From an uncultured Acidobacteriota bacterium (GTDB taxonomy: Bacteria > Acidobacteriota > Blastocatellia > RBC074), in assembly GCA_963796275.1 (NCBI GenBank), contig CAWCKY010000003.1:32001-96000 (forward strand): a stretch of DNA of 64,000 nt, written 5' to 3'. Below are positions 16,064-47,020 of this stretch, in pieces (position 1 is the stretch's first letter; every line of letters starts with the position of its first letter). Made by a program: the position numbers and the translations under genes. The notes under the pieces were generated by a model. That model was not told where the DNA came from. It searched no databases and saw only the letters and a program-made list of their open reading frames with translations.

Positions 16064-16072
16064 GTTAATGTC

Positions 16073-20660: not shown

Positions 20661-20821
20661 TTGTCTCGTTTGAATATCTTCCTGATGGATAAGGACTTCG
20701 AGGGAGACGAAATCAAAACGGCTCCTTATTTTGAGCAGAATCTGTCTTTTTTTGTCTCGTTTGTCTTTTTTATTTGTCTCACTTGAATATCTTATTGATG
20801 GATAAGAACTTCGAACAAGAC
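20661..20821. repeat. Two ~48-bp imperfect direct repeats in a cluster of GAGACAAA/TTTGTCTC motifs
   Basis: TTGTCTCGTTTGAATATCTTCCTGATGGATAAGGACTTCGAGGGAGAC (20661) and TTGTCTCACTTGAATATCTTATTGATGGATAAGAACTTCGAACAAGAC (20774). Confidence 0.85.
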
Positions 20822-20861
20822 AGAGGAAGAAATATCCAACCATTGCAGAAACTGAAAATAA

Positions 20862-22500: not shown

Positions 22501-23011
22501 CTTTTTTCCCTTTCCGGATGGTTTCTCGCACTCTATCCAACAGTGCGGTAGCCTGCGCTTCCCATTCCCGCTGCAACGCCTGATACTTCGACTGAATCGT
22601 TTCCGGCGTCTGCTTGCCATTATTCGTACTGGATGTCTTGTGGTTCAAAAGCAGGTCCCTCGCGCCGTAGGCAGCCATGAAGATTTCAATCAGATAGCCA
22701 TGGTCCCGTCGCTTAACGTAGTCGAATTTATCGATAAATTCGTCGGCCTTCGCAGTGAGTTCATCGATGGCTTGTCGTAGGCCGTCGATCTTCGCCTCAA
22801 TAGTTCCTTCCTTTTCTGGTTGAGTAATGTCGCTTGCTCCCGTAGCAGCGCGGCGCATCTGCAACCATTCATCGAACGCATCACGCAACAGATCAGCCGG
22901 TTTACAGGGTTTTTCACCGCACAGTCTCATGAACTCTTCGTAGTTGTCCGCATACAACCGGGTCGATACTGAGTGCGGTGTGAGCAGGCGATGATGAGGA
23001 CTGTTCTTCAT
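22487..23011 (-). CDS. Hypothetical protein with ribbon-helix-helix-like N-terminus (possible relaxosome accessory)
   Basis: SVSTRLYADNYEEFMRLC...PADLLRDAFDEWL strand-helix-helix pattern; immediately downstream of the relaxase. Confidence 0.55.
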   Translation of the reverse strand: MKNSPHHRLLTPHSVSTRLYADNYEEFMRLCGEKPCKPADLLRDAFDEWLQMRRAATGASDITQPEKEGTIEAKIDGLRQAIDELTAKADEFIDKFDYVKRRDHGYLIEIFMAAYGARDLLLNHKTSSTNNGKQTPETIQSKYQALQREWEAQATALLDRVRETIRKGKKDAKA

Positions 23012-23057
23012 AGTGACTTCCGTTCTTCTCCTTAAAAATGAGCCGTTCAAATCCGGC

Positions 23058-28499: not shown

Positions 28500-28510
28500 G
28501 ATCGATAGGG

Positions 28511-29035
28511 TTACTTTCTGGCCAGCTTGATCTGCGGTTGCTCGGTCATCCCCAACAGGCTCATCTCACCGTACTGTGGCACGCCTCGCAGCTTGCCGAT
28601 CTCGTCGAGAGAGAGCGGCGCGCCCTTCCAGCGCCGCATGCTGTCCGGGGAGAGCAACAGGAAGTGGGTTGATCCTTCATCGCGGCGTGGGCCTGTCGGG
28701 ATGATCCAGATCGTGCAGGTGGTTCCATCCACGGGATAGTAAATGTAGTAATAATTGGCTACGGAAAGACTGCGCCCATCGGCCCCGAAATCGGGACGGG
28801 TTTTGTGTTTCCACACTCTCGCTTCAAGCTCATGGAAGTCGGCGGGGAACCGCCCCGTTTGTCTGTGGTGCGTCCTGAGGGCTTTGACCATACTATCGAC
28901 GGCCAGGCGCGGCGCCTGTTCGCGCCATCGGCGAGATTCCATGGCAGCGTCCACCGCGTAGCTCACTACGATCGCCACGGCCGTCGCACCGAGCAGTGCG
29001 AATGAAACTCGTATCCGTCCCTTCGTGGTATTCAT
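28511..29035 (-). CDS. Single-TM pseudopilin-like protein
   Basis: N-terminal hydrophobic helix, then MVKALRTHHRQTGRFPADFHEL, reminiscent of GspG/type IV pilin globular starts. Confidence 0.55.
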   Translation of the reverse strand: MNTTKGRIRVSFALLGATAVAIVVSYAVDAAMESRRWREQAPRLAVDSMVKALRTHHRQTGRFPADFHELEARVWKHKTRPDFGADGRSLSVANYYYIYYPVDGTTCTIWIIPTGPRRDEGSTHFLLLSPDSMRRWKGAPLSLDEIGKLRGVPQYGEMSLLGMTEQPQIKLARK

Positions 29036-29040
29036 CGCCT

Positions 29041-31026
29041 CTACTCCTCGTTAATCTGGTTCAGAACTGCTTTCCCGCCGCGTGGATATGAGGAGCTATT
29101 TGATGGCCGCTTCTCGGCCATCGAAAATAGCACGGCGTCTTCTGGGAAGAGTCGCACATCGCCCTCATCCGGACTCTGATCCAGATCGCCGTCAGACAGA
29201 GTGTCATCCGTATTGTGATTGCTCCCGGAAGTCGTCAGGTGAGTGGTCTCGCTCTCTCCCCCTTTGCCAGGCGCCGTTTCTGCCGACTCCGTCTCTCGTG
29301 CTGTCTCTGCTGCCTTTTCGGCCTCCGCCAGCGTTATCGGTATTGCCAGCTCGCGCGGCAGCACACGAGCGATCCGACCTCCCTTGGCGCACTCTGGAAA
29401 ACTGAATTTAACAGGCGGGGCCGATCCGATAATGGCGATCGCTTGGGTGTATTCAGCCATCTGCCGCAGTTCTGCGGGATCGATAAGGTCACGTCCGGTC
29501 TCGGCCAGCCGCTCGTTGTCATACGTGGACCCGGGCGCGTCGACATTTGTATGCTGCAGAACAGTGGTGCGCCCGATTCTCTTGACCGCATATTGAGCCG
29601 TTTCAGAATCCAATCCTGGGAGGAATATCTGCGTGCCGATTGAGCCTAAGATAGCCTGCGTGCCGTCCCTGCCGTGCTGCTTAAACAATTGCCCGACGTT
29701 CTGATAGCCCAACACCAGCGCGAAACGCCGGCCGCGCCCGACACCCAGGATCTCGCTGAGGTTGTGCAGAGGGATATTGCCCGCTTCATCAAGTGCGAGC
29801 AGGACGGGAGCGCCGGATTCCTCATGACTGGTTTTCCGCGCGACGCTGGCCACCAGCCCGAAGAGAATGGATAGGATGATCTTATATCGTGTTGCGTCGC
29901 CTTCAGGAATCACGACATAGATGGCCGTGCCGGGCTTGCGCAAATCATATAAATCGATCTCGCGCAGCCCGCGAGCCCGCTCTTCACCACTGACGGATTG
30001 CAGAACGGCCAAGGCATGGGGTGATCTGAAGGGATCGAGTTTCACTCCCAATCCGGTGAAGACTCCTCCCTGTGTCTTTTCCTTGTCGGCTTTTTTGAAA
30101 AGCCCCCAGTGGATTCTGGCCTCCCTATCAGGCGAGCGGGAGAGCTCATCGTCCGTTTCCTTCAAATCGCGATCGGCGATGAATTCGGCGATCTGTGCCG
30201 GCGTCGCGCTCTCAGCGATCTGCGGAAGGTGCAGCAGCAGCGCGGTCGCAAGTGCAGTCTCGGCTTGCTGCCAGAAGGGATCATAGTTGACGTGCTTGTT
30301 GGGGTCATAACCGACGATGATCGAGGCCACCTCGTGAGCCAACTCCGCGTCGCCCTTGCAGGCAGGTACGAAGTTCCACCTGTCGGAGTATTTCGGATCG
30401 GCCAGGTCGAGCCGGTAGACGTACCTGAAATGCTGTGCGGTGTATGCGAACAGCTCGCCCTTGGGGTCGAGGAAGATTGCCGAACCGTGTTGCGCCCAAT
30501 CTCGCGCGATCGACATAAAGAAGCTCGCCGATTTGCCGGCGCCAGGCGGGCCAAAGATCGCCGCATGGCGGAGGACCTGGTTGAGCGGCAATGCCAGATC
30601 GTGCCTGCGTGTGAGCCGGCCGATCCTCAGTGCGCCGGATGGTAATAAGCCACGCTTATCGTAAGCCAGTTTCAAGTCTTTGAGTGTTTTGACATCGGCC
30701 CAGCGTGCCGACCCGTGTGTGAGTCTTTGCGTGAGGCGGTAGTACGGAAGAGCGAGCGACATCGCTTCGGCCGCGCTGATCAGCAGGGCGACCGGCATAG
30801 CGATCAGCATGTAGTCGTGAATCTCGACGCCCACTCGCAGCAGGACATTGGCGAGATGCCACAGAAGACAGGCGGTGGTTATCCCGCAGGCGACGAGCAG
30901 CAGCCCCTGGCTGATATCGCGCATCAGGCGGGCGGCTGCCTGAAATGAATCGAGATGAAGTGCATCAGCCGGACGGGGGATGCGATAACGGGCGTCTATT
31001 CTTTTAAGAGACTGATCGAGCGACAT
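29041..31026 (-). CDS. virD4: Type IV coupling protein (VirD4/TraG family)
   Basis: Two N-terminal TMs, HGSARWA, Walker A GPPGAGKS, DPKGEL, DPFW, Walker B LDEAGN. Confidence 0.93.
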   Translation of the reverse strand: MSLDQSLKRIDARYRIPRPADALHLDSFQAAARLMRDISQGLLLVACGITTACLLWHLANVLLRVGVEIHDYMLIAMPVALLISAAEAMSLALPYYRLTQRLTHGSARWADVKTLKDLKLAYDKRGLLPSGALRIGRLTRRHDLALPLNQVLRHAAIFGPPGAGKSASFFMSIARDWAQHGSAIFLDPKGELFAYTAQHFRYVYRLDLADPKYSDRWNFVPACKGDAELAHEVASIIVGYDPNKHVNYDPFWQQAETALATALLLHLPQIAESATPAQIAEFIADRDLKETDDELSRSPDREARIHWGLFKKADKEKTQGGVFTGLGVKLDPFRSPHALAVLQSVSGEERARGLREIDLYDLRKPGTAIYVVIPEGDATRYKIILSILFGLVASVARKTSHEESGAPVLLALDEAGNIPLHNLSEILGVGRGRRFALVLGYQNVGQLFKQHGRDGTQAILGSIGTQIFLPGLDSETAQYAVKRIGRTTVLQHTNVDAPGSTYDNERLAETGRDLIDPAELRQMAEYTQAIAIIGSAPPVKFSFPECAKGGRIARVLPRELAIPITLAEAEKAAETARETESAETAPGKGGESETTHLTTSGSNHNTDDTLSDGDLDQSPDEGDVRLFPEDAVLFSMAEKRPSNSSSYPRGGKAVLNQINEE

Positions 31027-31168
31027 CTTGCGTTCTCTGTTATTCCTCGAAGCGGACCGGTGAGAATCTGTTGAGAAGTTCTTGCTGAAGCGGCGACGGT
31101 TGCCTGCGTGCTACCTGTTTCACCATAAGTGTTTGCTTCAATTCTTCCGATTCAGTGACCGTCCAGCA

Positions 31169-31833
31169 TCATTTGAGCGACCGCCAGCGTTCCTGCGACC
31201 ATCCGAACGCGATCACTTCAGCGGTTGGCGCGAACGGATCAGGGACTTTCACGCCTGCCAGGCTGTTTGCAATAAATAATGCCGCTTCACCCTGCACTGA
31301 TGTTTCATCGGGAAGGCGCACGATCAACGCAGGTCCGTCATCGGCAATGCTGCCGACGGAGACAACCTCAATCCCCAAAGGTGTTGGACGATAGCGAATC
31401 GACAAGACCCCACAGTTAGCTGTCGGAGCTCCGCAGGGTGAGACGAGCACTCCTTCGGCCTCGGTAAGCATGAGGCCAGGGGGAACAGGTTTCGCTCTAC
31501 GATACCGGCGACCAAATCACGAACAGTGCGCGGAGTACGCCCCTGGAATTGTTCATTTGCCGCATACATGCAGGCCGCTAAGGCCAACGCCGTTGTCTCG
31601 CCGATACGCTCCGCCGTCCGCGCTACCTCACTGTTCATCATTACCGGAGCGATGGCTATCGGCGCAGCAGTTGAGTTGCCTGCCTCTCTCTCTCGGCGCA
31701 CGATCATCACATGAGGATCGACGACTTTAGTGCCACGCCTGAAATAGCTAGCAATGGAAAACGCCACGAAGAGACTTAGTGCCGTCCCACAAATTACTGC
31801 AATAGGTGATAGTGCTGGTCTCCTCAGGTTCAT
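31169..31833 (-). CDS. Single-TM hypothetical protein (pilin-like), frameshift near 31480
   Basis: MNLRRPALSP...TM...YAANEQFQGRTPRTVRDL joins ORF 31169-31471. Confidence 0.55.
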
Positions 31834-31846
31834 GCTTTCCTCCGGT

Positions 31847-32876
31847 TCAAGCTGCTTGTTCCAGTACACAGGCATCATCCTCAAAGGCCCACGCCACCCA
31901 TTCATCGATTTCGTGATCCGGCTGGTGCGCGGCAAATTCCAATCTCGCGATGCCCTGTCGCAGGTTGAGCAGTTCCTTATGCCGTTTGCCTAGATAACAT
32001 AGGTGTTCGTCGATCACCTCTCCAGTCAGTTTCTTGAACCCACCCAGGGTCAGAGCCCGGATCAGGTCGATCGATTCGCGTATTCCGGGTTTGTCCCGGA
32101 CTGCCGGCATGTCCCGCCTGATGCAATTGATCAACTTCGCGACGCAGGTCAATAACTCACGGCTCGCTAGTGGAGCCCGAGCCCGCAGGATTCGCACCTC
32201 CTCCTTCGGTGTAGGCGGATCGAGCCAGGCGTAGAGGCAGCGCGAGCGCAACGGAGCCGATAGATCGTGTCGAATGTCGTTCGAGAGCAGGATCACGACC
32301 GGCCATCGGTAGGGTCTCTCATGCCGACGTCACCGAAACGCGGGACGTGGGCATAGCCTCGGCCAAGCAGTTGAAGGAGCATGTCCTCGACCTTCTCCTG
32401 AAGCTTGTCGGCCTCGTCGATAATCAATATTGGAACGTCGTCATGCGAACCGGCATAATCGAAGGCCCCCAGGGCTTCTCCCAAAATCAAATATTCGCGC
32501 GTGAATTGTTTGTCCTGAGCATCTTTGAGTCTCGTTCCAGCGGCCAGTTCCTGCCTGACCATCTGTGTCTGCCCTTCGCGATCCCAGTCATACAAGACAT
32601 CAGCCAGGGTCAGCCCCTCCATTCCCTGCAGGTAGAAGACCGGCAGATTGCAGGCTTCGGCCATCGCTTCGGCCATCGCTGTCTTGCCTCCACCTCTCGG
32701 ACCTTCGATCAGCAGCGGCTTACGGCTGCGGATTGTGTGCGCGAGGTCGATCAGTAACCGGCGTTGGATCAGATAGCCGGTGGTGGCAAGCGTTTCGGCC
32801 AGCTCGTCGATTCCTTCCCGCTCCAGCAGAGCGACGCGGATTGATGCTCGGTCTTGAATGAGTCTTTCGGTTGCAT
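31847..32876 (-). CDS. MoxR-family AAA+ ATPase, frameshifts near 32840 and 32310
   Basis: GYLI...KPLLIEGPRGGGKTAMAEA, LQGMEGL...VLYDW, Walker B ILIIDEADK, VILLSN...DLSAPLRSRCLY; GGAGG RBS. Confidence 0.85.
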
Positions 32877-32883
32877 TATTTGT

Positions 32884-34277
32884 CTAGCCTCCTTCAATGC
32901 TCATCTCGGCGATCCGCCGTAATTCGGGACTCAATGCGAGGGATTGCTTTGCGAATTGCCTCCGGCGAACCGGATTCAAGCAGCCCGGCTACCTCTTCGT
33001 CGGAGAGCGCACTGTCCGCATTGTTGTTGAAAGAATGAGGTTGATTTCTCTGCCGCGCTGGCCGTGATCTGCGGCGAATCGACGCCTTGCGCCTGTTCCG
33101 GCAGGCGAGTGATCAAACGTAAGCGGGCGAAGCCGCCGGCACCTCCACGAACTCGCGGCGGCTCGTCGATGTGAGAGAGGTCAGCTCCGGAGCTACTGCG
33201 CCGGGCAAAACTACGGTGGTCGAGTTTCCTCTTGAGAGAGCCGCCTGGCCCAGAGGCGACGCCACTCGTTACCGCGCGGTCGAGGATTCGTTTCCAGGTG
33301 GTGCTTACTTTATGCAGCTTGCCCTTGAGTCCCGGCGCACCGTCAGCTCCGAGGAGATCGCCGTCGAGCTTTACCAGTTTCCCTGATGCCGGATCTATGA
33401 ACCCGGTCAGGCGGATGTAGGCGCGGTCTTGCTCGCTTCCTTGTAACTGTCCGATGAGAAGCGTGCCTTTCTGCAGATCCCATCCTTGTCCACGTACGTC
33501 TCGCGTCAGTTCGAAGCGGGCCGGGCTCTGGCGCAGGGTGTAGATCGCTCCTAACGTCCTGACCGGAAAAACGCACCGAACGGCGGCAGCGCTACACGCG
33601 CATCGAGCGCAGGTGTGAACATGACGGGGTCCGGTAAGGGCTGCTTAGTCACCCCTCCGGCGATTGGTTGACGCGCCGGGACAGGAGTGGGAGTCGGGGC
33701 GCAGCGGATTGAGCGCTCAGGATTACGTTCCTCGCGCCTGGCCGCGGCGGCCGCTCCCGAAGAGGCGTCACTCTGCCTGGTGGCGGTCTCGGTCGCGGAT
33801 GGCCGGGCGCTCACTGACTCCATCCATCGCAATCGTGACCGGGGTCGTCGGGGTCACGGTTGCCCCCTTCACTCCTGTCGGGGGAACAGGTGATCCGGAC
33901 GGCGCCGGCGTCGGAGTCACGATCGCGTTTCGGATATCCTTGATAGCCTCCGCCGTCATGCTGCCGTCATTATTGCTTCGGGTATTTGTTGGCTCGGATT
34001 TCCTGCCAGGTTCGCGCACCGGGATCCGTATCTTCATCCGTTCGTTGGAAAACAGCCACACGGCTGCTCCCGCTGCGGCCAGGACAAGGATAATGAGTAT
34101 CACTCCAATCAGCCGTTTGCTTCTCCGTTTGCGGGCAGGTTCCAGCTCTTTGGCATCAGCCTTTTCTTCCTCGTCATCCTCGAAGTTCAGGTACTCACTG
34201 CTTTCCGTGCCAGGAGCCTCTTGAGTGAGGCCGGCTGCGCCGTTTTGGAGGAGTCCGTTTTTTTCATTCAAGTCCAT
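32884..34277 (-). CDS. VirB10/TrbI-like protein, multiple frameshifts
   Basis: N-terminal TM, Pro/Thr-rich linker, beta-rich domain (LPPFG...VRTLGAIYTLR...KGTLLIG...DGAPGLKG...FVEVPA); follows the VirB8/9-like genes. Confidence 0.65.
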
Positions 34278-34307
34278 TTGCTATACCTTCCTCCTGACGG
34301 TTGTGGG

Positions 34308-35543
34308 TCAACGGTTGGATGAGGTCAGATTCACTGTCGCGGGCTCATCGGCTGCAGTAATCTGACCGACGGAAACACGCAATCTTTGTCGCGCTCCCAT
34401 GATCGGAGTTTCATAAACGACCGCGTAATATTTGATCTCGCCGGGTGGAATCACCTCATCCTCGACTGTTGTTTCCACGGCGAGCTTCCGAATTGCTTCG
34501 ATCTGAATAGGCCTTTTTTTGCTGTCGAACGTTTCGAGATAGATTCCTGGCTGATCCGGTACGATACGCGCATTTCTCTTCCTTGTGTTTTTGACCGCTA
34601 TGACCACGAGTTGCGAGCGCTTACTCACATCACGAACGGGTGAGACCGACAGTGAAAGCCCATGAACCGTCTCGCTCCACTTCTTGAAACTTCCAGGAGT
34701 CTTGGTCGCTTCGGTCAAGGCGAGGCTGGCGGCGCGGGCCGGATCACTGCTCTTTCCTAGGCGCTTAGCTGGAGGCTCAGAAGTATCGACCTCGGCCAGA
34801 TCGGCCACGGCTCTGGGGGGTTGGGGTGCCGGAGCCTGTGTGGGAATTTTTTCGTCCAGCGCGGTCGATTCGGATGACGTGGTAATTCGCAGGGATGTGG
34901 TGCGCGGCTTAGTGGCGCCAGTCGTGCTATCGAGATTGACGGCCAGCCCCGCCGCGCGCCTTGCTGCTTCTACTTCGTTCCGGTCATATGTAATGACAAC
35001 TCGATGTGCCTGTTCGGCAAGTTGTTGAACCGGATAGAAAAGAAAAGTGATCACCAGTCCGCTTTGCATCTGCACGATGACCGACGTAATGGGAGCGCGT
35101 CGAGCCTGCGCCATCATAGTTGGAGAAGCGAATCCGTCCCCCGGGCGAGCAATAATAAAACGATCGGTGTCTTTGGTCGGCGATTCCTCGACCGTCACTA
35201 GGTTGCTGTTGCCTGGGATAATATTGAAGAGCCGATCCGCGGACGGGAATTCGATAATCGTCGCGCCATTCGGTGACAGCCCCAAACGGATGATCGGATT
35301 TCGATTGCCACTCACCGCGACATTCGCTTCACCGCTGATGAAATCCGCGCCAGGCAGCTCGACGAGTTTGACTGAGGCGGGCGTATTTACGCTCCCCAGT
35401 TTCGGGCCCTGCTTCGTCGAGCCCGTCGTTTCTGTTGCAGCGATACTCCTCTGGCGCTTCTCCTGCGCATTGACGGGCAGGCTGATGGCCAACATCAACA
35501 TGAATGGCGCGAAAATTGAGACACTACGACTACCAAGAGGCAT
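34308..35543 (-). CDS. VirB9-like secreted T4SS component
   Basis: Signal peptide; IRLGLSPNGATIIEFPSADR...PGN pattern; gene order. Confidence 0.55.
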   Translation of the reverse strand: MPLGSRSVSIFAPFMLMLAISLPVNAQEKRQRSIAATETTGSTKQGPKLGSVNTPASVKLVELPGADFISGEANVAVSGNRNPIIRLGLSPNGATIIEFPSADRLFNIIPGNSNLVTVEESPTKDTDRFIIARPGDGFASPTMMAQARRAPITSVIVQMQSGLVITFLFYPVQQLAEQAHRVVITYDRNEVEAARRAAGLAVNLDSTTGATKPRTTSLRITTSSESTALDEKIPTQAPAPQPPRAVADLAEVDTSEPPAKRLGKSSDPARAASLALTEATKTPGSFKKWSETVHGLSLSVSPVRDVSKRSQLVVIAVKNTRKRNARIVPDQPGIYLETFDSKKRPIQIEAIRKLAVETTVEDEVIPPGEIKYYAVVYETPIMGARQRLRVSVGQITAADEPATVNLTSSNR

Positions 35544-35583
35544 AAACCCTCCTCAGATCGAAAACAAATTGAGATGTTGATAG

Positions 35584-36363
35584 CTACTGAGAAGCAGCTG
35601 GACTACTCTCCGACTCCACTTCCTTCTCATCGAACCAGGCGACAAGAAAGCCTGTTCGTTTGTTATGGTCTGCCCGGCCCTGCGGATCAGCCGCGAGCTT
35701 GAGCGTGAGAGACAGTCGGCGGGTCTCCTGCTGCGCGGCGCCGGAGACCAGCTTCGTGATCTGCTGCCTGCCGAGTATCCGCAGCAGGTAGGGATCAGTC
35801 CGATCGACCTCTGTGTTCTGCTCGGTCCAGACGGTTTGCCAGCTTTCGGCTCGCTGTTTATCCAGTATCCCGGTCTCTTTGAGCCACCTGGCGAACTTAA
35901 CTGCGGAGCCGGGGACCATCATGCGTATTGCCTGCTCCATATCTTTGGCCCTCGTGGCCGGGTCGATTCCATAGATCATCCTGACGAACTCGCGACTGAT
36001 GTATTTTTTATCGTCAGCTGTGAGCCTGTCCGGGCCGAGTTGCACGGCATCAGTCGCGCCGTACTCCCGATCGTTAATCATCAGGACCTTCCCTGACGAA
36101 CGGTCCACAACGATGCGGTCCGGGCGGCGCATGTACTGGTAGATATTCAAGCCGACACTCATGAGCAGCAGCACCGTAAACAGGAGCCCCATCCAGGTGA
36201 GACTCAGGATCGTCCTGATATCCGTAGGGTCCCGGTGCAAGGTCAGGGGAACCGGGAGCGTTAATGCCCCTCCGGCAATCCCACCATGACCTGGCGGTTG
36301 CTTCGCCTCACTCGAATCCCCATCGAGAGTAGCGGGCCTGAGAGTGTTCGCCTTTGCGCTCAT
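35584..36363 (-). CDS. VirB8/TraK-like inner-membrane T4SS protein
   Basis: Single TM, PDRIVVDRSSG, NTF2-like C-terminus ending GFLVAWFDE. Confidence 0.65.
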   Translation of the reverse strand: MSAKANTLRPATLDGDSSEAKQPPGHGGIAGGALTLPVPLTLHRDPTDIRTILSLTWMGLLFTVLLLMSVGLNIYQYMRRPDRIVVDRSSGKVLMINDREYGATDAVQLGPDRLTADDKKYISREFVRMIYGIDPATRAKDMEQAIRMMVPGSAVKFARWLKETGILDKQRAESWQTVWTEQNTEVDRTDPYLLRILGRQQITKLVSGAAQQETRRLSLTLKLAADPQGRADHNKRTGFLVAWFDEKEVESESSPAASQ

Positions 36364-36464
36364 GCGATTCTCCTTCTTGCTTCACACAGTGGTGTTGATT
36401 GACGACAAATAAGCTCCAACGAATCCGGCGCTGTTTTCTAGCGCTGAGTTCGATGCCAGCCTGA

Positions 36465-36485
36465 TGATCAACAATTCGCGTGCCA
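36465..36485 (-). promoter_or_regulatory. Sigma54-like box upstream of the VirB8-like gene
   Basis: TGGCACG-CGAA-TTGTTGATCA. Confidence 0.55.
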
Positions 36486-36516
36486 CGGTGCGAGCCCTCT
36501 GTCGTCACGATGGATA

Positions 36517-36867
36517 TCAACGCTTGCCTGGCCTTCGAGAACGCCTGCTTTTCCCATGCTCATATACCTGTGGTCCATCGGAACTATTGCTCACGAGTTC
36601 CAATCCCTTTGACTCCATCTTCAAGCTCGTATCGGCTGGGAGATGAATGTACCGGTTCTCGTCCAGCCTTAGCACCCAGCCTACATTGACGATGAAAAGG
36701 CCGACTGCGGTTATCGTTCGTTTAGAGTCAAGCAGGGATGCGTCCCCACCAGCCTGCGCTCGCCGGCCCATAAACTCATCCAGAAGGCGCAGCAAATCCT
36801 TTTCGTTGTATGTTTCTTCATCGTCGTGTGTGTATTCTCTCACTTCCATCACCTCCCCATTCGTCAT
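36517..36867 (-). CDS. Hypothetical protein, first gene of the leftward tra operon
   Basis: 116-aa ORF with AAGGAGG RBS. Confidence 0.6.
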   Translation of the reverse strand: MTNGEVMEVREYTHDDEETYNEKDLLRLLDEFMGRRAQAGGDASLLDSKRTITAVGLFIVNVGWVLRLDENRYIHLPADTSLKMESKGLELVSNSSDGPQVYEHGKSRRSRRPGKR

Positions 36868-36906
36868 CGAGTGCCTCCTTGTGCGCTATAGTTTTTCTTC
36901 GAGCCT

Positions 36907-36927
36907 TGATCAACAATCCTCGTGCCA
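36907..36927 (-). promoter_or_regulatory. Sigma54-like box upstream of the leftward tra operon
   Basis: TGGCACG-AGGA-TTGTTGATCA, same flanks as 36465-36485. Confidence 0.6.
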
Positions 36928-37230
36928 GATATCCTCTAACATCGAACTGCCTCTGCCGGTCAGCAGGAGGAACATCGATTACGATGTGGCGATCGCACCG
37001 GAAAGCTGGCCTCACAATGGTCAATCAATAACCCGCTTGCGAAGGTGGATGATCTATCCCGGCAAACTCCACTTCTCGAATTGACGATCGCAGGAGCGTG
37101 ATAAATTTCCCGGTCATCGAAATTGAATGGATGGGAGGAGATGCCCGTTTATCGTGTAGCTTTTTTAAGGATTGTTGTAGACGCAATTGGTAGTGGTTGA
37201 GATAAACCAAATTGCGCTAGATCTTGTACA

Positions 37231-37339
37231 TTTCCAAAATGGAAATTAGTCGCTCTGACAAGCCTCAGGGTTTGAAGAGAGTTTTCCTGTCGTATTTCGA
37301 CATTTCCATTTTGAAAAGCCATTTTTTCCATTTTGGAAA
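37231..37339. repeat. Three quasi-palindromic TTTCCA-WWW-TGGAAA boxes
   Basis: TTTCCAAAATGGAAA 37231, TTTCCATTTTGAAAA 37303, TTTCCATTTTGGAAA 37325. Confidence 0.8.
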
Positions 37340-37481
37340 AGTTTTGGTCGTAAAGACGGCACCTCGGATGCCGGACCGCGTTCGCACGATCACCACAGAT
37401 TACAGCTCTCGCTGCTCTCGGCTCTCCGGGGAATGAACAGTTAAAGATACGGAGTGGCTGGTATGAGTTTTCCACGAATGG

Positions 37482-38258
37482 TTATTCGATGGGTTTAGGT
37501 GAGCGGATATAGATAGATCGAGTCAGAGGCTTCCGGTCAGGAGGGGCTAAGGGGGCAAGCAGCGTTGGTCCAAGGTCTGTGCCGGGGCGTGGAGATGTGG
37601 GATCTTGAGGTTGGAATCTACCGATAAGAGTTGCCGCCTGGGCCAGCTCTCCCCTGGTGATCTTCCGGTCGTTATCCGTGTCGAGCCATTTATTTAGCCC
37701 ATAAATCCGTTGTTCTTTGCGTGAGTTGTCGAGTGGAGAGATGACGGTTTCGTCTTTCCCTTCAATGATGAAGCCTCGAAAGACAGCCATATAAACGTCG
37801 GCCATGCTGTTGAGACGCCCGCGAAACGATGCAAAATACTTTTCTACCAGGCGCAACTGTCCAACCGGATCCATCTCCCTGATAGCCGCAGTAGTCGTTC
37901 CCAGACGGCTTGCTGTCTCTTTTACGAATTGCAGCAAGCCGCTCGCGGACTGTCCGGGTAGGGAGTTACGGGCTGAAGGGTCAAAGAGTGATTCAGCCGC
38001 CATAACGTTGAGCAGCCACGCAGGCTGCGTTTTCAGCCGTTCCGCAACTGCGTGAAGCTGCGGCCAGAACTGAGGATGTTCGCGCAATATCTTAAGGAGA
38101 TTTTGCCGTGAGCGAAGATGCTTCGCCTCGCTGCGAGCCACTATTCTCCGCCGGTGATCACCCGTCTCTTTGTTTTGAGCTATTGCTGTCGGCGCCACGA
38201 GCAGGGCCGCTGCCACGCCGATCGATTTCAATCTTTTCGTCCGGTTTCCATCATCCAT
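37482..38258 (-). CDS. Lytic transglycosylase (VirB1-like)
   Basis: Signal peptide; LLNVMAAESLFDPSARN...ASGLLQF SLT motif. Confidence 0.85.
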   Translation of the reverse strand: MDDGNRTKRLKSIGVAAALLVAPTAIAQNKETGDHRRRIVARSEAKHLRSRQNLLKILREHPQFWPQLHAVAERLKTQPAWLLNVMAAESLFDPSARNSLPGQSASGLLQFVKETASRLGTTTAAIREMDPVGQLRLVEKYFASFRGRLNSMADVYMAVFRGFIIEGKDETVISPLDNSRKEQRIYGLNKWLDTDNDRKITRGELAQAATLIGRFQPQDPTSPRPGTDLGPTLLAPLAPPDRKPLTRSIYIRSPKPIE

Positions 38259-38272
38259 CGACAGGTCACGTC

Positions 38273-38319
38273 AGCAACCACGATGCCGGGCCAAAACAGC
38301 GGCACGGAAGTTGATAGAT
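38273..38319. promoter_or_regulatory. Divergent pair of sigma54-like boxes
   Basis: Minus strand CGGCATC-GTGG-TTGCT (38273-38288, GG-N10-GC); plus strand CGGCACG-GAAG-TTGATAGAT (38300-38319). Confidence 0.5.
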
Positions 38320-38444
38320 AGCCTCAGCGAAACGACCCGCCGCGGATTCGAGGCTTTCCCAAAGCTTCGGTGACTTGTTCTGTGGTCCGATGGAAATGGC
38401 GGTCATTTAAAGCGAATAAATTGTTTCAATGAAGGAGTGGAGCC

Positions 38445-38915
38445 ATGAAAGTGAAAGGCTTGAGATGGATAGGTCTGTCTATAGGAAGCTGCAAAGTGGA
38501 TAACGACCTGCTCGAACGCTCGGCAGCCGCGAGAGCAGGTCATCGTGTAATTCAGTTAGCCGTGCTTGTTCGATCGATCGAGCCGGCGTTGGTGCTCACC
38601 ACTGCACTGTTGTTGATGGGTGTTACGCTTGTGCAGCCGGCGTTCGCGCAGGTGCAGGGCGGCACTATCTTCGGACAGAACGACCAGGCAGTCGGGAGCG
38701 GAGTGCGAGAAGCGATCAGGTGGGGGAGAAATTTACTCTTCCTGCTCGGCGTCGTCGGCGTCAGCTGGGGAGCAATGAATATCTGGTTGGAGAAAGGGTG
38801 GGGTAAACAGATGCTCGGCGGAGGCCTTTGCATGGGAATAGGCGGCGTCTTGTCGCTCATCTACAGCTTCTCGCAAGGCAATGCCGTCAATCTCGACACT
38901 GACCTGGGCAATTAA
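38445..38915 (+). CDS. VirB2/TrbC-like pilin
   Basis: Long leader ending PAFAQ, two hydrophobic helices; first gene of the B2-B3-B4 order. Confidence 0.7.
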   Translation: MKVKGLRWIGLSIGSCKVDNDLLERSAAARAGHRVIQLAVLVRSIEPALVLTTALLLMGVTLVQPAFAQVQGGTIFGQNDQAVGSGVREAIRWGRNLLFLLGVVGVSWGAMNIWLEKGWGKQMLGGGLCMGIGGVLSLIYSFSQGNAVNLDTDLGN

Positions 38916-38925
38916 AAGGGGGGCA

Positions 38926-39273
38926 ATGATGCGGCTCAGACCCATCAGACCGAATGTCTACTTGCCGGTGGCGCGGTTCGGCGTGCGGATCGAGGACTGG
39001 AAGTTCGTCTTTGCCGCAGCACTCGTCAGCTATACGGTGCCCTTTCTACTCAACTTGAGACTATGGGGAGTGCCGCTGGAGTTATGGTGCGGACTGGGAG
39101 CAGGGGCATTCTCCATAGCATTTTTCAACTATGCGCGAATCGGTCGACGACCGTACTGGTTGCAGCACCGAGTGCGCGCCGTCTTTACCAGCCCGATCGA
39201 GCGACGCTCGCTTCCGATTGATGAGGAGAAGCGGCCGAAGCGGGCATGGATCATCAACGCAAAAAGGAACTGA
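38926..39273 (+). CDS. VirB3-like membrane protein
   Basis: Small 2-TM protein (PVARFGV...) between pilin and VirB4. Confidence 0.65.
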   Translation: MMRLRPIRPNVYLPVARFGVRIEDWKFVFAAALVSYTVPFLLNLRLWGVPLELWCGLGAGAFSIAFFNYARIGRRPYWLQHRVRAVFTSPIERRSLPIDEEKRPKRAWIINAKRN

Positions 39274-39274
39274 C

Positions 39275-42139
39275 ATGGAACCCATTACGATCATCGGCGG
39301 TATCGCCGCGGGCGCAGGTGTCGGGCTTGGCATCGGCACTGCGATACGCTTGCTGCCTGTGCTGCGTCAGGCTCATCGAGACATAACAGCCTGGAGCCTG
39401 AGTTACGAGGCTCGCCTGTACGAAAGCATAGCGAAGGATGAGGAAGTGAGAATGGAATTGGCGAAGCCTTCTGGGCGAAAGCGTGACTCTTCAATTGTGG
39501 GCTTTTGCGAAGGTGCTTTGAGGCACATCGATGGATCATATAGCTGCGCATGGGAGGCGCAGCTCGCTCCGACGATGCTCGCGCACGAGCATACCGTAGA
39601 ATCCCGCTATGACGCACTGGCGCGGATGCTGGCGGTCGAGAAGCCGCCTGGTACCGTGATCCAATTCCGCTATTCGTCCGGCCCCGATCCGGGGCACGCG
39701 ATCCTCGCGCATCTCACGGCGCGGGGAGACGGAGAGTTGGCGCATCCTGAGGCCGCGGAACTCCACATGAACAATGTGGAGTTCTATCGCAGTGCCGCGG
39801 CTGTGGGAGTTTACCGTCACCAGACGCTCTCGATCTGGGTGCGAGTACCGGTCCGGCAAAAAGGGGACGATACCAGCAGCGGCCTGAGCGCTTTTATTCC
39901 CGCTGCTGGGAAGGCGTTTGGCAAACAGAGATTCAAAGACCTTCTCCACATACTGCGCAGAAAGTGGGCGGAGACGGCTGATGATGGCGTGGTGCGGCGA
40001 ATTCTCGCCGATGAACGCGAAGCGAGAAGGAGGGCGGAGAAGGTCTTCCGCCTGATCGAACGCGAATGCCCGTTGTCGTTGCGACGCTTTGGACAGGAGA
40101 AATTGTGGGAAGCCGTCTACCTCGGGCACCTGCAGAACGCGCGTTCTATTCCACTCTTGCCTGACGTTCTCGGATGCGATCTCCGGGATTATCTGTGTGG
40201 CGAGACGATTCGTGCGGAGGGGGATTACGTTATGCATGGTTTGCACCCGGGGGCCATCGTCTCGATGTTCACTCCGCCGCAGCCGGCAGTTGCGGCAGAT
40301 GCACTGCGTGTCTTGACGTTGAACCCCGTGCTCAATTTCCGGCACACGATCATTGCGGAGTGCATCTATCCCGACCAGAGCAAAGCCACGAAGCGCCTCG
40401 ACCGGCGAATTAAGCAGGTAAGACGCTCGCACATTCGTGCCGACGGAAGAGTGAAACAATCGCCGGAATCGAGAGTAGCGCTCGCCGACCTCGAGACTGT
40501 ACGCGAGCACGTGACCGGATCGCGAGAAGCGTTGGTGGATATGCGCTTCTACGCACTCATCTATGGCCCACCGGCGCGGACGCGGGAAGAGAAGATGGAG
40601 TCGCTCACGATTCTCGACAACTATTGCGAACAGATGGTGACAACGATGAAGGCTATCCCCGGTGTGGAAGCGGCGCGTGAGGACCCGGACGGCATACGCG
40701 CCATCTATCACCGAGGGCTGGCGGGTGAAGCGGACCGGCGGCCCACAGGGAGGGAGATCACAGAAGTCGCCGGCTCACTCGCCGCGCTCATTCCAACCGA
40801 ATCGAGCTGGAGTGGGGCCAGGAGACCTCACACATTGTGTTCAACACCGTCGGGGAGATTGATTGGTCTGGACTTCTTCGACCGCGGAGAGATCGCTTCT
40901 CCGCTTGCCGTAGTGTTAGGGCAGCCCGGCGCCGGCAAATCAGTGCTCATGGCCCGAATCATCAACGATGTGCTGGCGACCTTAGCTGAAGCTAGAGTGC
41001 GAGCGGTCGATTTCGGCGAATCGCTCGGCCCGCACGTGGATGTGGTGGGAGGCCGCCATCTGCGTTTCATCGCCGGAGAGCCTCGCACAATCAATATTTG
41101 GGATTACCCGGGGCTGGAACTGGGCGATCCGCCCGACGAGACCCAGATCGCTTTCGTGGTAGGCGACGCGATGCGTTTGGCGAGAGTCAAGCCCGATGAC
41201 AGCATCGCCGAGGACATCCTGACCAATGTGGTGACTGAGGTCTACAGGAACGAGGTTCCCCGCAACGGCCTCGGGAAGCCGAAACATGAGCCGACCCATT
41301 CGCACTTGCTGGCGATGCTAGATAGCTATCCCTTCCAGGCGCCGGCAGTGAGAGATCGCGCTGCGACGCTGGCAGTGGCGCTTGAGAAGTATCGCGCCCA
41401 TCCCTGGATCGATGCGCCCACGCATCCTGATTTCGCTACTGATTCTCCATATGACGTGTATGAGCTCGATAGCCTGGATAACTTTCAGCAAGACGTAAGA
41501 GAGACTTTGGCCGGACGAGTTGCTGCCCGTGTAGTTCGCTCTATCGGGCGGCTGAAAGAAGACGGGACGCGTGCGCCGGTGTTACTCGTCTTTGATGAGG
41601 TCTGGAAGATCAGGGATAAGTACCCCCACATTCTAGCTGTCATCAAACGAGGTGCACGACAAGGGCGCAAAGAGAACGCAGTGACGATGCTGGCGACACA
41701 GGCTTATGAGGATTTCGAGGAGTTGCACGATATTACCAGGACCGCCGGGATAAAGGTCATCGGCAAACAAATAGGTGATTGCTCGAAGCTCATTGATGAC
41801 GCCGGACTGTCGGACAACGCTGCTGCAGCGATAGGCACTATCAGGAATGTTCGAGGCGAATACGCCCAGTATGTATTGGTGCTGGGGTCCGGCTTCGACC
41901 AGATCGTCGAAATGATCCAGATGGACCTCTCACCGGCCGAGCTATGGACATTCGCCACAAACCCGGATGAACGCAACGCCAGAGCGCGGGTGCGATCGCT
42001 TACCGGCTGGCCGCTGGCTGCTGTGATCGGATGGCTCGCCGCTGTCTATCCGAGAGGGCTGGCTGCTGCAGGACAGATCGAAGTTGATGAATCGCTTTTA
42101 GGCTTTCAACATAAAACCCTCAGAGGAGGGAAGCAATGA
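39275..42139 (+). CDS. virB4: VirB4-family T4SS ATPase
   Basis: Walker A GQPGAGKS, VDFGES, INIWD, Walker B LVFDEVW, RQGRKENAV..LATQ. Confidence 0.9.
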   Translation: MEPITIIGGIAAGAGVGLGIGTAIRLLPVLRQAHRDITAWSLSYEARLYESIAKDEEVRMELAKPSGRKRDSSIVGFCEGALRHIDGSYSCAWEAQLAPTMLAHEHTVESRYDALARMLAVEKPPGTVIQFRYSSGPDPGHAILAHLTARGDGELAHPEAAELHMNNVEFYRSAAAVGVYRHQTLSIWVRVPVRQKGDDTSSGLSAFIPAAGKAFGKQRFKDLLHILRRKWAETADDGVVRRILADEREARRRAEKVFRLIERECPLSLRRFGQEKLWEAVYLGHLQNARSIPLLPDVLGCDLRDYLCGETIRAEGDYVMHGLHPGAIVSMFTPPQPAVAADALRVLTLNPVLNFRHTIIAECIYPDQSKATKRLDRRIKQVRRSHIRADGRVKQSPESRVALADLETVREHVTGSREALVDMRFYALIYGPPARTREEKMESLTILDNYCEQMVTTMKAIPGVEAAREDPDGIRAIYHRGLAGEADRRPTGREITEVAGSLAALIPTESSWSGARRPHTLCSTPSGRLIGLDFFDRGEIASPLAVVLGQPGAGKSVLMARIINDVLATLAEARVRAVDFGESLGPHVDVVGGRHLRFIAGEPRTINIWDYPGLELGDPPDETQIAFVVGDAMRLARVKPDDSIAEDILTNVVTEVYRNEVPRNGLGKPKHEPTHSHLLAMLDSYPFQAPAVRDRAATLAVALEKYRAHPWIDAPTHPDFATDSPYDVYELDSLDNFQQDVRETLAGRVAARVVRSIGRLKEDGTRAPVLLVFDEVWKIRDKYPHILAVIKRGARQGRKENAVTMLATQAYEDFEELHDITRTAGIKVIGKQIGDCSKLIDDAGLSDNAAAAIGTIRNVRGEYAQYVLVLGSGFDQIVEMIQMDLSPAELWTFATNPDERNARARVRSLTGWPLAAVIGWLAAVYPRGLAAAGQIEVDESLLGFQHKTLRGGKQ

Positions 42140-42987
42140 AAAAGGCATCTATGCTTCATCGGCTCATACCTGGGTTGTTCATCTGCATTCTGCTCATCCC
42201 TCACGAGGCGGCGTACGCGCAATGGACTGTCTACGATCCTGCTCAGTACGTGCTTCAAGTCGAAAAGAAAGTCGAAGAGGCGGCTCGGTGGATGGAGCAC
42301 TACCAGAAGTTAGTAGAGCAGCTCACAACACTGGGTGGAGTACTTAAAGCCGCCGATGATCTCGTCGCCAAGCAGAACAATGCAATCGCCACCATGAGCA
42401 ACATAGGAAGGACGGTCCGCGCTTCCTTCCAGTTAAAGGATCAGCTTGAAGCGATTGTTACCACGCGCCTGAACATGATCAAGCGGATCGACGAACGGCT
42501 TCGCAACGGTATCTTTGATCCGGAAGCCGATCTGCGAGACCTTGATGAGTATTTAAGAGAATCTATCGGCCGGAGCAGTCAAGATACGATCGCGAATCGC
42601 GAACGGCTTGTTCGGATGGACAACCAGATCGCGATGTGGCAACGCGAAATGAGTCTCAAGGAGCAGAAGAAAGCATGGGCAAAGGGGGAGCAGAAAATAA
42701 CGGCAGACTTACTTTACGTGGAGGAACGGAAGCCTGACGCGCAGAAATGTGCTTCGTGTATCGCCAGTCTCAAGGATGAACTGGCCAGTTACGAGATACT
42801 GATCGCACAGCTTGAGGTGGAGATATTAGATCTCCGATGCCAAATCGAGAATCGCATGAAGCAATACAACATTCGTATGGAGGAGCGCGTCAAGTTCGGG
42901 GAGCAGGTACAGTCGATGAATAAGGCATGGTCAGAATTCAATAATGCGCTCGACGAGCTTCAAAGGACGCTCAGCAAAGTCGACTAG
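42136..42987 (+). CDS. VirB5/TrbJ-like secreted protein
   Basis: Signal peptide followed by AQWTVYDP, then coiled coils. Confidence 0.7.
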   Translation: MKKASMLHRLIPGLFICILLIPHEAAYAQWTVYDPAQYVLQVEKKVEEAARWMEHYQKLVEQLTTLGGVLKAADDLVAKQNNAIATMSNIGRTVRASFQLKDQLEAIVTTRLNMIKRIDERLRNGIFDPEADLRDLDEYLRESIGRSSQDTIANRERLVRMDNQIAMWQREMSLKEQKKAWAKGEQKITADLLYVEERKPDAQKCASCIASLKDELASYEILIAQLEVEILDLRCQIENRMKQYNIRMEERVKFGEQVQSMNKAWSEFNNALDELQRTLSKVD

Positions 42988-43023
42988 AGCCTATCTATTA
43001 GAAGATAGGATCAAGGAGCAATC

Positions 43024-45009
43024 ATGCGTGCAAGCAAACTCAGGCGATCAACACTGTCCATCCTGCACATTACTGCGGTAATTGTTTGTGTGAGCCTGCC
43101 CATGCTCGCTCAGACGCCCACGCCTATACCGTCCCCCGCGCCTGCGAATCCTGCAGGTAGTGGCTTATCGGATATCTTCCGGGCGTTAATCGGCCATGCC
43201 GGCGCCCTCATACCGCTCCTACAAAACGAGATCGAAGGCCCTCTCATGCCGTGGTTGGAGAAAGTGTCCTGGACACTGGCTGCGCTCGTCATCATGTTCG
43301 GCTTCGCCAGGCTGTGGCGCGAAAACGCGGGAGCCGGTGTGGATGTTTTCTGGTGGTTCGGGAGAGTTGGGATCATCTTCGCGCTGATGGGAACCGGCCC
43401 GACCATCATCAACACGCTCGATACTATCGGCCAGGAGATCGCCTGGAGTGGAAGCAGCAGAAACGGCGATACCGCCGTTCTCCACAGATTCTACGACAAC
43501 CAGCGTAAAACCTTCGAAGAAGGCTACCGCAGATTCACCAAAGGGCATTTCACTGTTGAGCCAACTGGCGAAAATCTCAAACCGCCTCCGGGTGGAGAAG
43601 AGGCAGTTCTGGGAGTGCTCCTCGACGTGGTCTCTTCGCCTCAGGGGATCAATAACAAGTTCGAGAGCCTTTCGCACAATATGCCGTTCCTCTTTTCGTT
43701 GCTGAGCTTCGCGCGCGGGATAATCGCTTTCGGGGACCTGTGGCTTCTGTTGCTCGGGGGATTTCTGATGATCGCCGTCAGGCTTGCGGCGCCGGTGATG
43801 ATTGCCCTGGCGATCGATCGGAACCTGGCTCAGAAGATATCCTATCCATTTACCTGGGGCGTTATCGTTCTGACACTGGTGTGGCCGGTTGTCTCTCAAT
43901 TGATCAGGGGGCTCGCCTATATGGGAGGCAACCTCGCGATGAGTCTGAGTAGAAGTGATGCCGTCTATCAATGGAATCCGCAAACGATGCAGGAAATCAT
44001 GTCTTCTGGCGCAGAGCCTTATCACACTGTCATTTTGGCAGTCTTGATTATGGCCGTCGCCGGACTGTCACTGTGGGCTTCGCCGATGATCGCCTACAAA
44101 GTGGCGAGCGGCCAGATCTACGAAAGCGTATCGTCCACCATCTCGGGATGGATGGGGGCGATTGTCGGAGCTGGAGTTGAATTCTACAGCGCGTCAGCTG
44201 CGGCACAGATTACTAACATGGCCGATCAGATGCAGGCGCTGGGGGGATTTGGAGCCGAGATGATGCGCGCTGAAGCGGGGAAGGATGCGGGCAATCTGGG
44301 CATTCGCGCCAGGCAGAGTGAGAAACTCGCACAGCTCTTCGCGCAGCGGGACCAGCAGATCGGCCTCGCCAAGGCAGGGCGTGACTTCCAGAATAACGCC
44401 GCTTACCAGCAATACATGCACACCTATCGCACCATGATGGCGGGTCGCACTAAAGAGAACAATGACAATAGGGTCGCGGGCCATCAGCAACGGGAGATGC
44501 AAAAGTGGGGCGCGATCAGCGAGGCATTGACTATCGGTGGAAGAAACATGAGCCCCTTCGGCATGGGTGGGAACAAAATAGGAGATGGAGCCTTTATAGG
44601 CCTTACCATTCAACATGGCGGCAATTTCATCAGGTGGTTGGGTCAGGGACAGGCAGTTATCAAAGGCGCCGGAGGGCGCACCAAGAACATCGAAGAATAT
44701 TACAATGATCTGAATAAAAGCTGGGGTACCTACACCAAAAATATGTATGGTCTTCACGGCGATTTCGCAAACGCCCAGATCGATACTGCCAAAGCATATG
44801 CGAATCAAACTGCTGGCGGGGTCAACCAGGCTGCAGCGCTCGAGAGACAAGCAAACCTCTTCACCTACGAAGGCGCGGTCGGGGCGGCTAAGGAAGTGCG
44901 GGATGCATCGCTCCAGGCAGCCCAGTTGCGCGCAGTCGCAGCCCTGATGAGCGCTATGGGCCATAACATCGCGCGTAGTGCTGAGCAGGGCATGGCGCTG
45001 CGGTATTAA
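43024..45009 (+). CDS. VirB6/TrbL-like polytopic membrane protein
   Basis: Multiple TMs, LAAPVMIAL motif, Ala/Gly-rich tail; follows the VirB5-like gene. Confidence 0.7.
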   Translation: MRASKLRRSTLSILHITAVIVCVSLPMLAQTPTPIPSPAPANPAGSGLSDIFRALIGHAGALIPLLQNEIEGPLMPWLEKVSWTLAALVIMFGFARLWRENAGAGVDVFWWFGRVGIIFALMGTGPTIINTLDTIGQEIAWSGSSRNGDTAVLHRFYDNQRKTFEEGYRRFTKGHFTVEPTGENLKPPPGGEEAVLGVLLDVVSSPQGINNKFESLSHNMPFLFSLLSFARGIIAFGDLWLLLLGGFLMIAVRLAAPVMIALAIDRNLAQKISYPFTWGVIVLTLVWPVVSQLIRGLAYMGGNLAMSLSRSDAVYQWNPQTMQEIMSSGAEPYHTVILAVLIMAVAGLSLWASPMIAYKVASGQIYESVSSTISGWMGAIVGAGVEFYSASAAAQITNMADQMQALGGFGAEMMRAEAGKDAGNLGIRARQSEKLAQLFAQRDQQIGLAKAGRDFQNNAAYQQYMHTYRTMMAGRTKENNDNRVAGHQQREMQKWGAISEALTIGGRNMSPFGMGGNKIGDGAFIGLTIQHGGNFIRWLGQGQAVIKGAGGRTKNIEEYYNDLNKSWGTYTKNMYGLHGDFANAQIDTAKAYANQTAGGVNQAAALERQANLFTYEGAVGAAKEVRDASLQAAQLRAVAALMSAMGHNIARSAEQGMALRY

Positions 45010-45749: not shown

Positions 45750-45843
45750 TCTACTAGCCTTTCGAGAACTCGACCGAATGCCAATTATCGCGGTAATATA
45801 AAAACCGCTCTGACCCGTGGCTGCAACTCGGGAAGGGAGCAAC

Positions 45844-46945: not shown

Positions 46946-47020
<75 letters not shown>

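Follow-up and report, generated by a model that had tools for sequence, protein, structure and literature searches.

Candidate sigma-54 promoters ahead of the conjugative transfer genes of an uncultured acidobacterium

The conjugative element and its transfer units

The stretch of DNA analysed here (the window, 64,000 nt) corresponds to C3:32001-96000 of the 9.46-Mb, 7-contig assembly GCA_963796275.1 of an uncultured Acidobacteriota bacterium of the class Blastocatellia. Scans against Pfam and NCBIfam revealed a relaxase, a coupling protein, a VirB4 ATPase and an integrase adjoining a tRNA gene, identifying the region as an integrative conjugative element (ICE) with type IV secretion. Four intergenic boxes resembling sigma-54 (RpoN) promoters of the -24/-12 type stand before all three transfer units of this element, namely the transglycosylase gene alone, the rightward operon reaching from the pilin-like gene to the gene of a 661-aa protein, and the leftward operon of ~16 kb. 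Based on the comparisons described below, they are likely to be genuine sigma-54 promoters. The boxes are:

36465-36485, minus strand: box 1, TGGCACG-CGAA-TTGTTGATCA (full letters TGGCACGCGAATTGTTGATCA), between the genes of the 116-aa and 259-aa proteins
36907-36927, minus strand: box 2, TGGCACG-AGGA-TTGTTGATCA (full letters TGGCACGAGGATTGTTGATCA), of the -24/-12 type
38300-38319, plus strand: box 3, CGGCACG-GAAG-TTGAT (full letters CGGCACGGAAGTTGATAGAT), with A at the position of the '-12 C'
38273-38288, minus strand: box 4, CGGCATCG-TGG-TTGCT (full letters CGGCATCGTGGTTGCT), with the canonical GC at -12

The genes and operons of the element to which they relate are:

20460-36363, minus strand: leftward transfer operon with the genes of a 259-aa membrane protein, a 411-aa protein, VirB10-like/AAA proteins, the coupling protein, the relaxase and further open reading frames (ORFs)
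25500-28499, minus strand: relaxase (Pfam/NCBIfam)
29041-31026, minus strand: coupling protein (Pfam/NCBIfam)
31160-34277, minus strand: frame-split VirB10-like and MoxR-like AAA genes (Pfam, NCBIfam)
36517-36867, minus strand: 116-aa ORF, first gene of the leftward operon, behind box 2 (54% identical to its homologue in the copy on contig C2)
37482-38258, minus strand: lytic transglycosylase with SLT domain (PF01464, E 6e-7), behind box 4
38445-45009, plus strand: rightward operon behind box 3, encoding a pilin-like 156-aa protein, a 115-aa protein, a VirB4-family ATPase, a TrbJ-like 283-aa protein and a 661-aa protein
39275-42139, plus strand: VirB4-family ATPase (VirB4/TraC families; Pfam, NCBIfam)
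45817-46929, plus strand: tyrosine integrase at the right end of the element, abutting tRNA-Arg
46947-47020, minus strand: tRNA-Arg(ACG), right end of the element

The tight same-strand packing of the genes suggests that each transfer unit is a single operon. Position and hydrophobic pattern point to putative pilin and VirB3 roles for proteins of the rightward operon, and the 116-aa and 259-aa proteins had no match in Pfam, NCBIfam, PADLOC or PDB sequences. A small HTH_17 protein is also encoded in the element (Pfam/NCBIfam scans). No repeat of the tRNA-Arg end of at least 15 nt that would mark the left end of the element was detected in C3:1-130000.

Properties of the four boxes

Inspection of the window sequence found the four boxes, which had been proposed in a first-pass annotation of this DNA, at exactly the positions given there and each pointing at the next gene. 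Boxes 1 and 2 are identical at 18 of 21 positions (TGGCACG, N3, ATTGTTGATCA). Box 2 is situated 40 nt upstream of the ATG of the 116-aa ORF, which has a predicted leader of 34 nt and an AAGGAGG ribosome site. Box 1 lies ~100 nt upstream of the 259-aa ORF (35584-36363) and box 3 ~125 nt upstream of the pilin-like ORF (38445-38915). Box 4 precedes the annotated ATG of the transglycosylase gene by 15 nt. With translation starting from the ATG at 38258 the leader would be very short, in line with the nearly leaderless mRNA foreseen for this box; the transglycosylase gene of the copy on contig C4 starts further downstream than that of the window copy. Boxes 3 and 4 stand back-to-back, their GG dinucleotides being 14 nt apart. 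Transcription would be expected to start ~12 nt downstream of the boxes, i.e. near 36901 (box 2), 36459 (box 1), 38326 (box 3) and 38262 (box 4).

All four boxes contain the GG at -24 (two as TGGCACG, one as CGGCACG and one as CGGCATC). The first-pass annotation had pointed to a variant -12 element in three of them, and this proved accurate: they carry GT, GT and GA, and the GC of the TTGC motif is present in the transglycosylase box only. Three promoter classes are distinguished: TGGCACG-N4-TTGTT at the operon for mating-pair formation (Mpf), coupling protein and relaxase, (T/C)GGCACG-N4-TTGA at the pilin-VirB4 operon and CGGCATCG-N3-TTGCT at the transglycosylase gene.

Within the 64 kb, exact TGGCACG-N4-TTG occurs twice, as boxes 1 and 2. 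Allowing one mismatch raised the count in the window to seven against 4.03 expected, which is not significant (13 of 100 shuffles reached seven), and the more general GGCAY-N5-TTG was found 12 times against 4.5 expected, a count reached in none of 100 shuffles. No sigma-70-like promoter facing the transfer genes was detected, the single match being at chance level, within the SLT gene and on the wrong strand. Likewise, no known RNA family of the Rfam type was found in 35500-39500, and a search of sequencing runs listed no RNA run with this DNA. The leader predicted from box 1 to the 259-aa gene contains a terminator-like hairpin (36417-36433, minus strand), such hairpins being at chance level (three versus 2.8 expected).

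Other copies of the element in the same genome

According to a blastn comparison two further related elements are present in the genome (C2:686-711 kb and C4:1503-1548 kb), sharing 65-87% identity with the window. In the C2 copy box 2 reads TGGCACGCTGATTGTTAATTG and box 1 TGGCACACGGATTGTTGATCG, with flanks that can no longer be aligned, and the C4 copy carries TGGCACATAGCTTGTT ahead of two small genes that precede its homologue of the 259-aa protein (p259). In the divergent pilin/SLT region GGCACG-N4-TTGAT on one strand and GGCAT-N5-TTGCTGA on the other are kept in all three copies, the C4 pilin box improving to TGGCACG (TGGCACGAGGTTTGAT) in diverged flanks. Box 2 forms the longest invariant block of an otherwise divergent upstream region both in the C2 paralogue and in the closest relative, locus L014. 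Box 1 is present in the C2 copy and absent from L014 through a difference of ~75 nt, and therefore appears to be a lineage-specific internal promoter.

Compared with the C2 copy, several frame changes are needed in the window copy to read the VirB10-like/AAA gene and the gene next to it, which could be due either to decay or to indel errors of long reads. The VirB10-like (TrbI/TraM) region and the MoxR-like AAA ATPase form a single frame of 815 aa in the C2 copy (also listed as L002:12206-14653) and two genes in the C4 copy and in the Blastocatellia loci; in the window they are broken into four frame segments and the gene after them into two.

Conservation of the boxes in related loci

The decisive evidence that the boxes are no chance matches is their conservation in relatives. 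The comparison comprised eight Blastocatellia loci from a scan of species genomes and 80 metagenome loci, the latter with 3-kb flanks and with p259 homologues of 50-90% identity. As clustering of the flanks at 60% identity is too lenient for a count of independent lineages, distinct spacers were counted instead.

In 56 of the 64 loci with at least 800 nt of upstream sequence a same-strand GGCAY-N5-TTG lies no more than 800 nt ahead of the p259 homologue; none of the 64 has one on the opposite strand. Among the eight loci without a box in this range six have one at 809-944 nt, and L065 and L070 have none. The base following TTG in the 56 nearest boxes is T in 44 and A in 12 cases, never C or G. 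The first-pass annotation had made the sigma-54 reading depend on a GG-N10 spacing that is kept in homologous elements. This spacing is indeed retained: the N5 gap yielded 153 matches (101 plus, 52 minus) in the 402,689 nt of the 88 loci, and each of the other spacings among N2-N9 gave 6-38 matches, roughly 25 being expected.

The spacers themselves are free to vary, with 34, 16 and 16 variants in the three promoter classes. The base before GG, which was not part of the selection, is T in 91% of the TTGT class and 83% of the TTGA class. The flanks hold 0.0-0.7 bits of information in the tra-operon class and 1.2-1.6 bits at some positions of the pilin and SLT classes, where the loci are closely related. 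Two short conserved blocks with a fixed gap, a free spacer and an orientation towards the gene are the signature of sigma-54 rather than of a dyad operator.

Among the 40 loci whose upstream sequence extends over 2600 nt or more, 21 have the back-to-back pair; in ten others a pilin-type box stands alone, and the single box of L077 is of the GC type and of uncertain class. Across the 32 pairs found in total the base on the pilin side is A in 26 and T in six, never C, and every SLT-side box has C. In L073, L090 and L092 the TTGT and TTGA classes are swapped between the two large-operon promoters.

Sigma-54 machinery of the host and the variant -12 element

The genome encodes one RpoN (PF04552, 198 bits, open frame of 548 aa) and yielded 60 PF00158 matches to enhancer-binding proteins (EBPs), ~45 of them full-length. 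Boxes of the form TGGCAY-N5-TT followed by a given dinucleotide were counted genome-wide on the basis of a self-made, crude gene caller (6884 genes, 82% coverage):

GC at -12: 63 in total, 48 non-coding, 28 non-coding, co-oriented and at most 300 nt from a gene
GT at -12: 40 in total, 19 non-coding, 13 co-oriented at most 300 nt from a gene (five of them the elements' own)
GA at -12: 49 in total, 17 non-coding, 10 co-oriented at most 300 nt from a gene (one of them the elements' own)
the 12 dinucleotides not starting with G: 330 in total, 31 co-oriented and non-coding at most 300 nt from a gene

The GT and GA boxes of the host thus show a non-coding share above background and face genes. Identical GA boxes precede two paralogous chromosomal genes of ~985 aa with unlike flanks. 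In Escherichia coli K-12 TGGCACG-N4-TTGT is found 46-60 nt upstream of pspA, beside pspF (the region reads TGGCACGCAAATTGT), in what we take to be the PspF/sigma-54 promoter. The pspA core with its TTGT and the host GT and GA boxes ahead of chromosomal genes ease the concern raised by the variant -12; judged from these sequences GT appears usable as a -12 variant, and GA probably is so as well.

The TTG is never followed by C at the two large-operon promoters, even though T and A interchange there between lineages, which suggests selection against the consensus base. In-vitro work has reportedly linked changes at -12 to altered basal and raised activator-independent transcription.

Several further boxes were encountered in the genome. 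Near-identical boxes of the GA type (cgTGGCATACnGATTGAAA) are located at C2:278437 and C2:287990 before the genes of a DnaK-like 635-aa and a 188-aa protein (identities from the N-terminal sequence only), which hints at a -24/-12 control of chaperones or at a heat-shock-type -35 element that overlaps the boxes. At C6:2.85-2.90 Mb and C7:112-143 kb GC, GT and GA boxes are densely clustered in the vicinity of several EBP genes; they lie ahead of universal-stress-like and the ~985-aa paralogous genes, possibly forming a stress or dormancy regulon. In the window itself a gene-free gap (4330-4485, minus strand) contains the canonical box TGGCACCGTCGTTGC and, ~110-150 nt downstream, a hairpin with a T-run, so that the gap looks like a sigma-54-driven small RNA gene. 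A stretch at C3:1402389-1402585 is 74% similar to it and has a canonical box too.

Candidate regulator sites upstream of the boxes

Upstream of box 2 the window contains one group of candidate regulator sites:

37228-37342: three TTTCCA-(A/T)3-4-TGGAAA palindromes in a non-coding AT-rich stretch of 550 nt, 300-410 nt upstream of box 2

The strict form of the TTTCCA palindrome was found at only two places in the 9.46-Mb genome, both of them in this stretch; three copies are kept in L014, and none turned up in the other 96 loci. They could represent an enhancer, an operator or a part of the origin of transfer (oriT). In L025, L029, L041, L048, L061 and L082 other palindromes, whose arms measure 8-24 nt, are found at distances of 88-143 nt upstream of a box, whereas the clear candidate sites of the window are restricted to 300-410 nt, compared with the ~80-150 nt usual for enhancers. 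The differences of the upstream palindromes between subfamilies fit element-specific binding proteins; equally, the palindromes may be operators or parts of oriT.

Search for an activator

The first-pass annotation had seen no activator in the visible part of the ICE, which holds for the core element according to a genome-wide PF00158 scan and to a search of all six frames of C3:1-96000, C2:680-725 kb and C4:1498-1612 kb for GAFTGA-type motifs. In C3:1-96000 the only frames of this type belong to an NtrC-type regulator and to a frame-split small EBP left of the window. The former and its partner are chromosomal:

58547-59950, minus strand: NtrC-type response-regulator EBP, outside the element, the sole intact EBP in the window
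60008-61510: histidine kinase partner adjoining this EBP

The neighbours of the NtrC-type EBP are housekeeping genes (a TlyA-like methyltransferase and Met-tRNA ligase). The small EBP follows an XRE-type HTH gene at C3:6378-8001, 25 kb left of the window, and is split over three frames that contain the GAFTGA motif, an AAA lid and an HTH_8-like tail. It is situated next to ABC-3C-type genes, in a block colinear with C4:1606-1607 kb, and has no counterpart in the C2 copy. It may serve the ABC-3C-type genes rather than transfer.

The conserved AAA protein of the transfer operon was considered as an EBP and rejected, being MoxR-like and devoid of the GAFTGA motif. In five related genomes no consistent linkage of an EBP to the element was found, the nearest EBP among the matches listed being 51-164 kb away.

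The region around the small EBP (C3:6378-12301, L095) consists of the XRE HTH gene and the EBP followed by the ABC-3C-type genes (CTD7, DUF3732), with a homologous block at C4:1606082-1607132. Furthermore, C3:6956-30597 is colinear with C4:1607132-1573464, and this colinearity indicates that both elements may be composites of 70-100 kb. The left part of the window (4876-11349, minus strand; 14615-16558, plus strand) encodes a 2157-aa NACHT NTPase as well as a second tyrosine recombinase, which has a DUF6262 partner, and with its DdrB-like, SSB and PIN genes is a mosaic of mobile and defence genes beside the transfer core.

Interpretation of the boxes and alternative explanations

The sigma-54 reading put forward in the first-pass annotation gains support from the comparison, since half-sites, orientation and GG-N10 spacing are kept family-wide. 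Dependence of the boxes on RpoN is well supported by sequence, and in our judgement the four boxes are likely to be genuine sigma-54 promoters that together control every transfer unit, with an activator that would not be among the canonical genes of the core. Several observations speak against this reading. In the two large-operon classes C follows TTG in none of the 56 nearest boxes and in none of the 32 pilin boxes, which is unexpected if ordinary RpoN recognition is the sole constraint, and the enrichment of GT and GA boxes in the host is modest and depends on the crude gene caller. The pilin and transglycosylase boxes, only ~14 nt apart, leave no shared upstream room for an enhancer. Furthermore, the back-to-back pair is absent from seven Blastocatellia genome loci and L093, which lack any pilin- or SLT-type box (8 of 40 loci); in L012, the one Blastocatellia locus inspected, the divergent gap measures only ~35 nt. 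Finally, none of the three copies has a PF00158 match or a GAFTGA-type frame in its core, and among the matches listed no EBP is encoded on the element-bearing contigs of two related genomes.

That the boxes are functionless chance matches can practically be dismissed: the one-mismatch count in the window does not exceed that of shuffled sequences, but the strand- and spacing-specific occurrence in 56 of 64 relatives and the GGCAY-N5-TTG count reached by 0 of 100 shuffles refute this explanation. The systematic lack of the '-12 C' in two classes would better suit operators for an element-encoded regulator whose binding site resembles a -24/-12 promoter, transcription then starting from another, unrecognised promoter type. 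The negative activator search in the element and the subfamily-specific palindromes, suggestive of element-specific regulators, are in line with such a scenario, as is the conservation within the window subfamily, which extends to TTGTTGATCA and thereby includes a TGATCA palindrome. This extension, however, is not retained beyond the window subfamily, where conservation is limited to the two sigma-54 half-sites with their fixed 5-nt gap and free spacer, and dyad symmetry is not seen across the family. An inverted copy of AGGATTGTTG 250 nt upstream would also fit an operator, but for a 10-nt match this is at chance level (~0.8 expected by our own estimate). Taking furthermore into account that one bipartite motif serves three promoter contexts in both orientations and that no candidate regulator was found, look-alike operators seem unlikely.

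Alternatively, the polymerase could be bound by way of RpoN and rarely or never be activated, so that closed complexes act as a lock or roadblock silencing the transfer genes and the few transcripts arise from read-through or activator-independent leakage. Such a role would explain why no cognate activator was found and why a non-consensus -12 is conserved, and would suit the frame changes in the Mpf genes of the window copy, which may be decaying. A pure lock, however, needs no box per operon with correct orientation and leader length; that all three promoters have been conserved throughout a large, diverse family speaks for a productive role, and palindromes at enhancer-like distances occur in several subfamilies. 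We regard silencing of this kind as quite improbable.

If the boxes are productive sigma-54 promoters, RpoN-RNA polymerase would sit on them as a closed complex and fire only upon ATP hydrolysis by an AAA+ EBP. Transfer would accordingly be off by default and licensed by a signal. The activator might be encoded by the host, or be an unrecognised protein of the element that binds the subfamily-specific upstream palindromes.

Relation to known systems and significance

Sigma-54 promoters are silent without an ATP-driven activator, so that such wiring would provide a tight off state combined with a single signal-dependent switch. The E. coli pspA promoter is identical in its core TGGCACG-N4-TTGT, with T for C at -12, and pspF is annotated adjacent to it; it differs from the boxes of the element in that the stress operon it controls is chromosomal and has a DNA-binding EBP of its own next to it. 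Type IV pilin genes are known to lie behind -24/-12 promoters that depend on sigma-54 and PilR. Those pili are, however, related to type II secretion and governed by a dedicated PilS/PilR pair, in contrast to the pilin operon of a conjugative type IV secretion system. RteB of the Bacteroides element CTnDOT is presumably a member of the NtrC/sigma-54 activator family.

Like the element described here, CTnDOT is an integrative conjugative element; its transfer is turned on via a two-component pair, RteA/RteB, according to a review (PMC5812530). Its element-encoded regulator acts at one early promoter (rteC) and its tra operon is switched by Xis2d/Exc, whereas the boxes of the window element directly precede each of its three transfer units, and no activator was recognised within it. 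ICE genes that use RpoN promoters are represented by the NifA-RpoN regulon of ICEMlSymR7A; this ICE (PMC3538637) differs in carrying its own rpoN2 and nifA, and its promoters drive symbiosis cargo and not transfer genes. The circuits SetR/SetCD, ImmR, TciR/BisDC and quorum sensing likewise keep transfer off by default until a signal releases it, but in the passages of the review considered here they rely on repressors, sigma-70-type activators or RpoS (PMC5812530). In the text of this review RpoS is the sole sigma factor named and sigma-54 terms do not occur, 'RpoN' appearing once, in the title of a reference (PMC5812530). A full-text literature search, judged by titles and the beginnings of abstracts, returned no description of conjugative transfer operons directly behind sigma-54 promoters. 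Control of conjugation is usually described in terms of repressors, sigma-70 activators, quorum sensing or RpoS, which makes a wiring by sigma-54 unusual.

We tentatively propose, as a possibility that we would not yet favour, that a widespread family of elements in soil acidobacteria has placed its whole transfer machinery on sigma-54, with a -12 that deliberately departs from the consensus (T or A, never C) at both large operons, a consensus -12 at the transglycosylase gene and no canonical activator of its own. Transfer might then be licensed by an EBP of the host, the element eavesdropping on host signalling, or by an element-encoded activator of a new kind acting on the subfamily palindromes, and the choice of the -12 base might tune leakiness or the order of firing. 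The promoter chemistry would be ordinary and its task unusual, shared by a large uncultured family that has conserved a puzzling departure at -12. The family-wide avoidance of the consensus C provides a natural data set on the in vivo role of the -12 base and, if the sigma-54 reading is true, gene flow within a dominant soil phylum would be gated by a signal.

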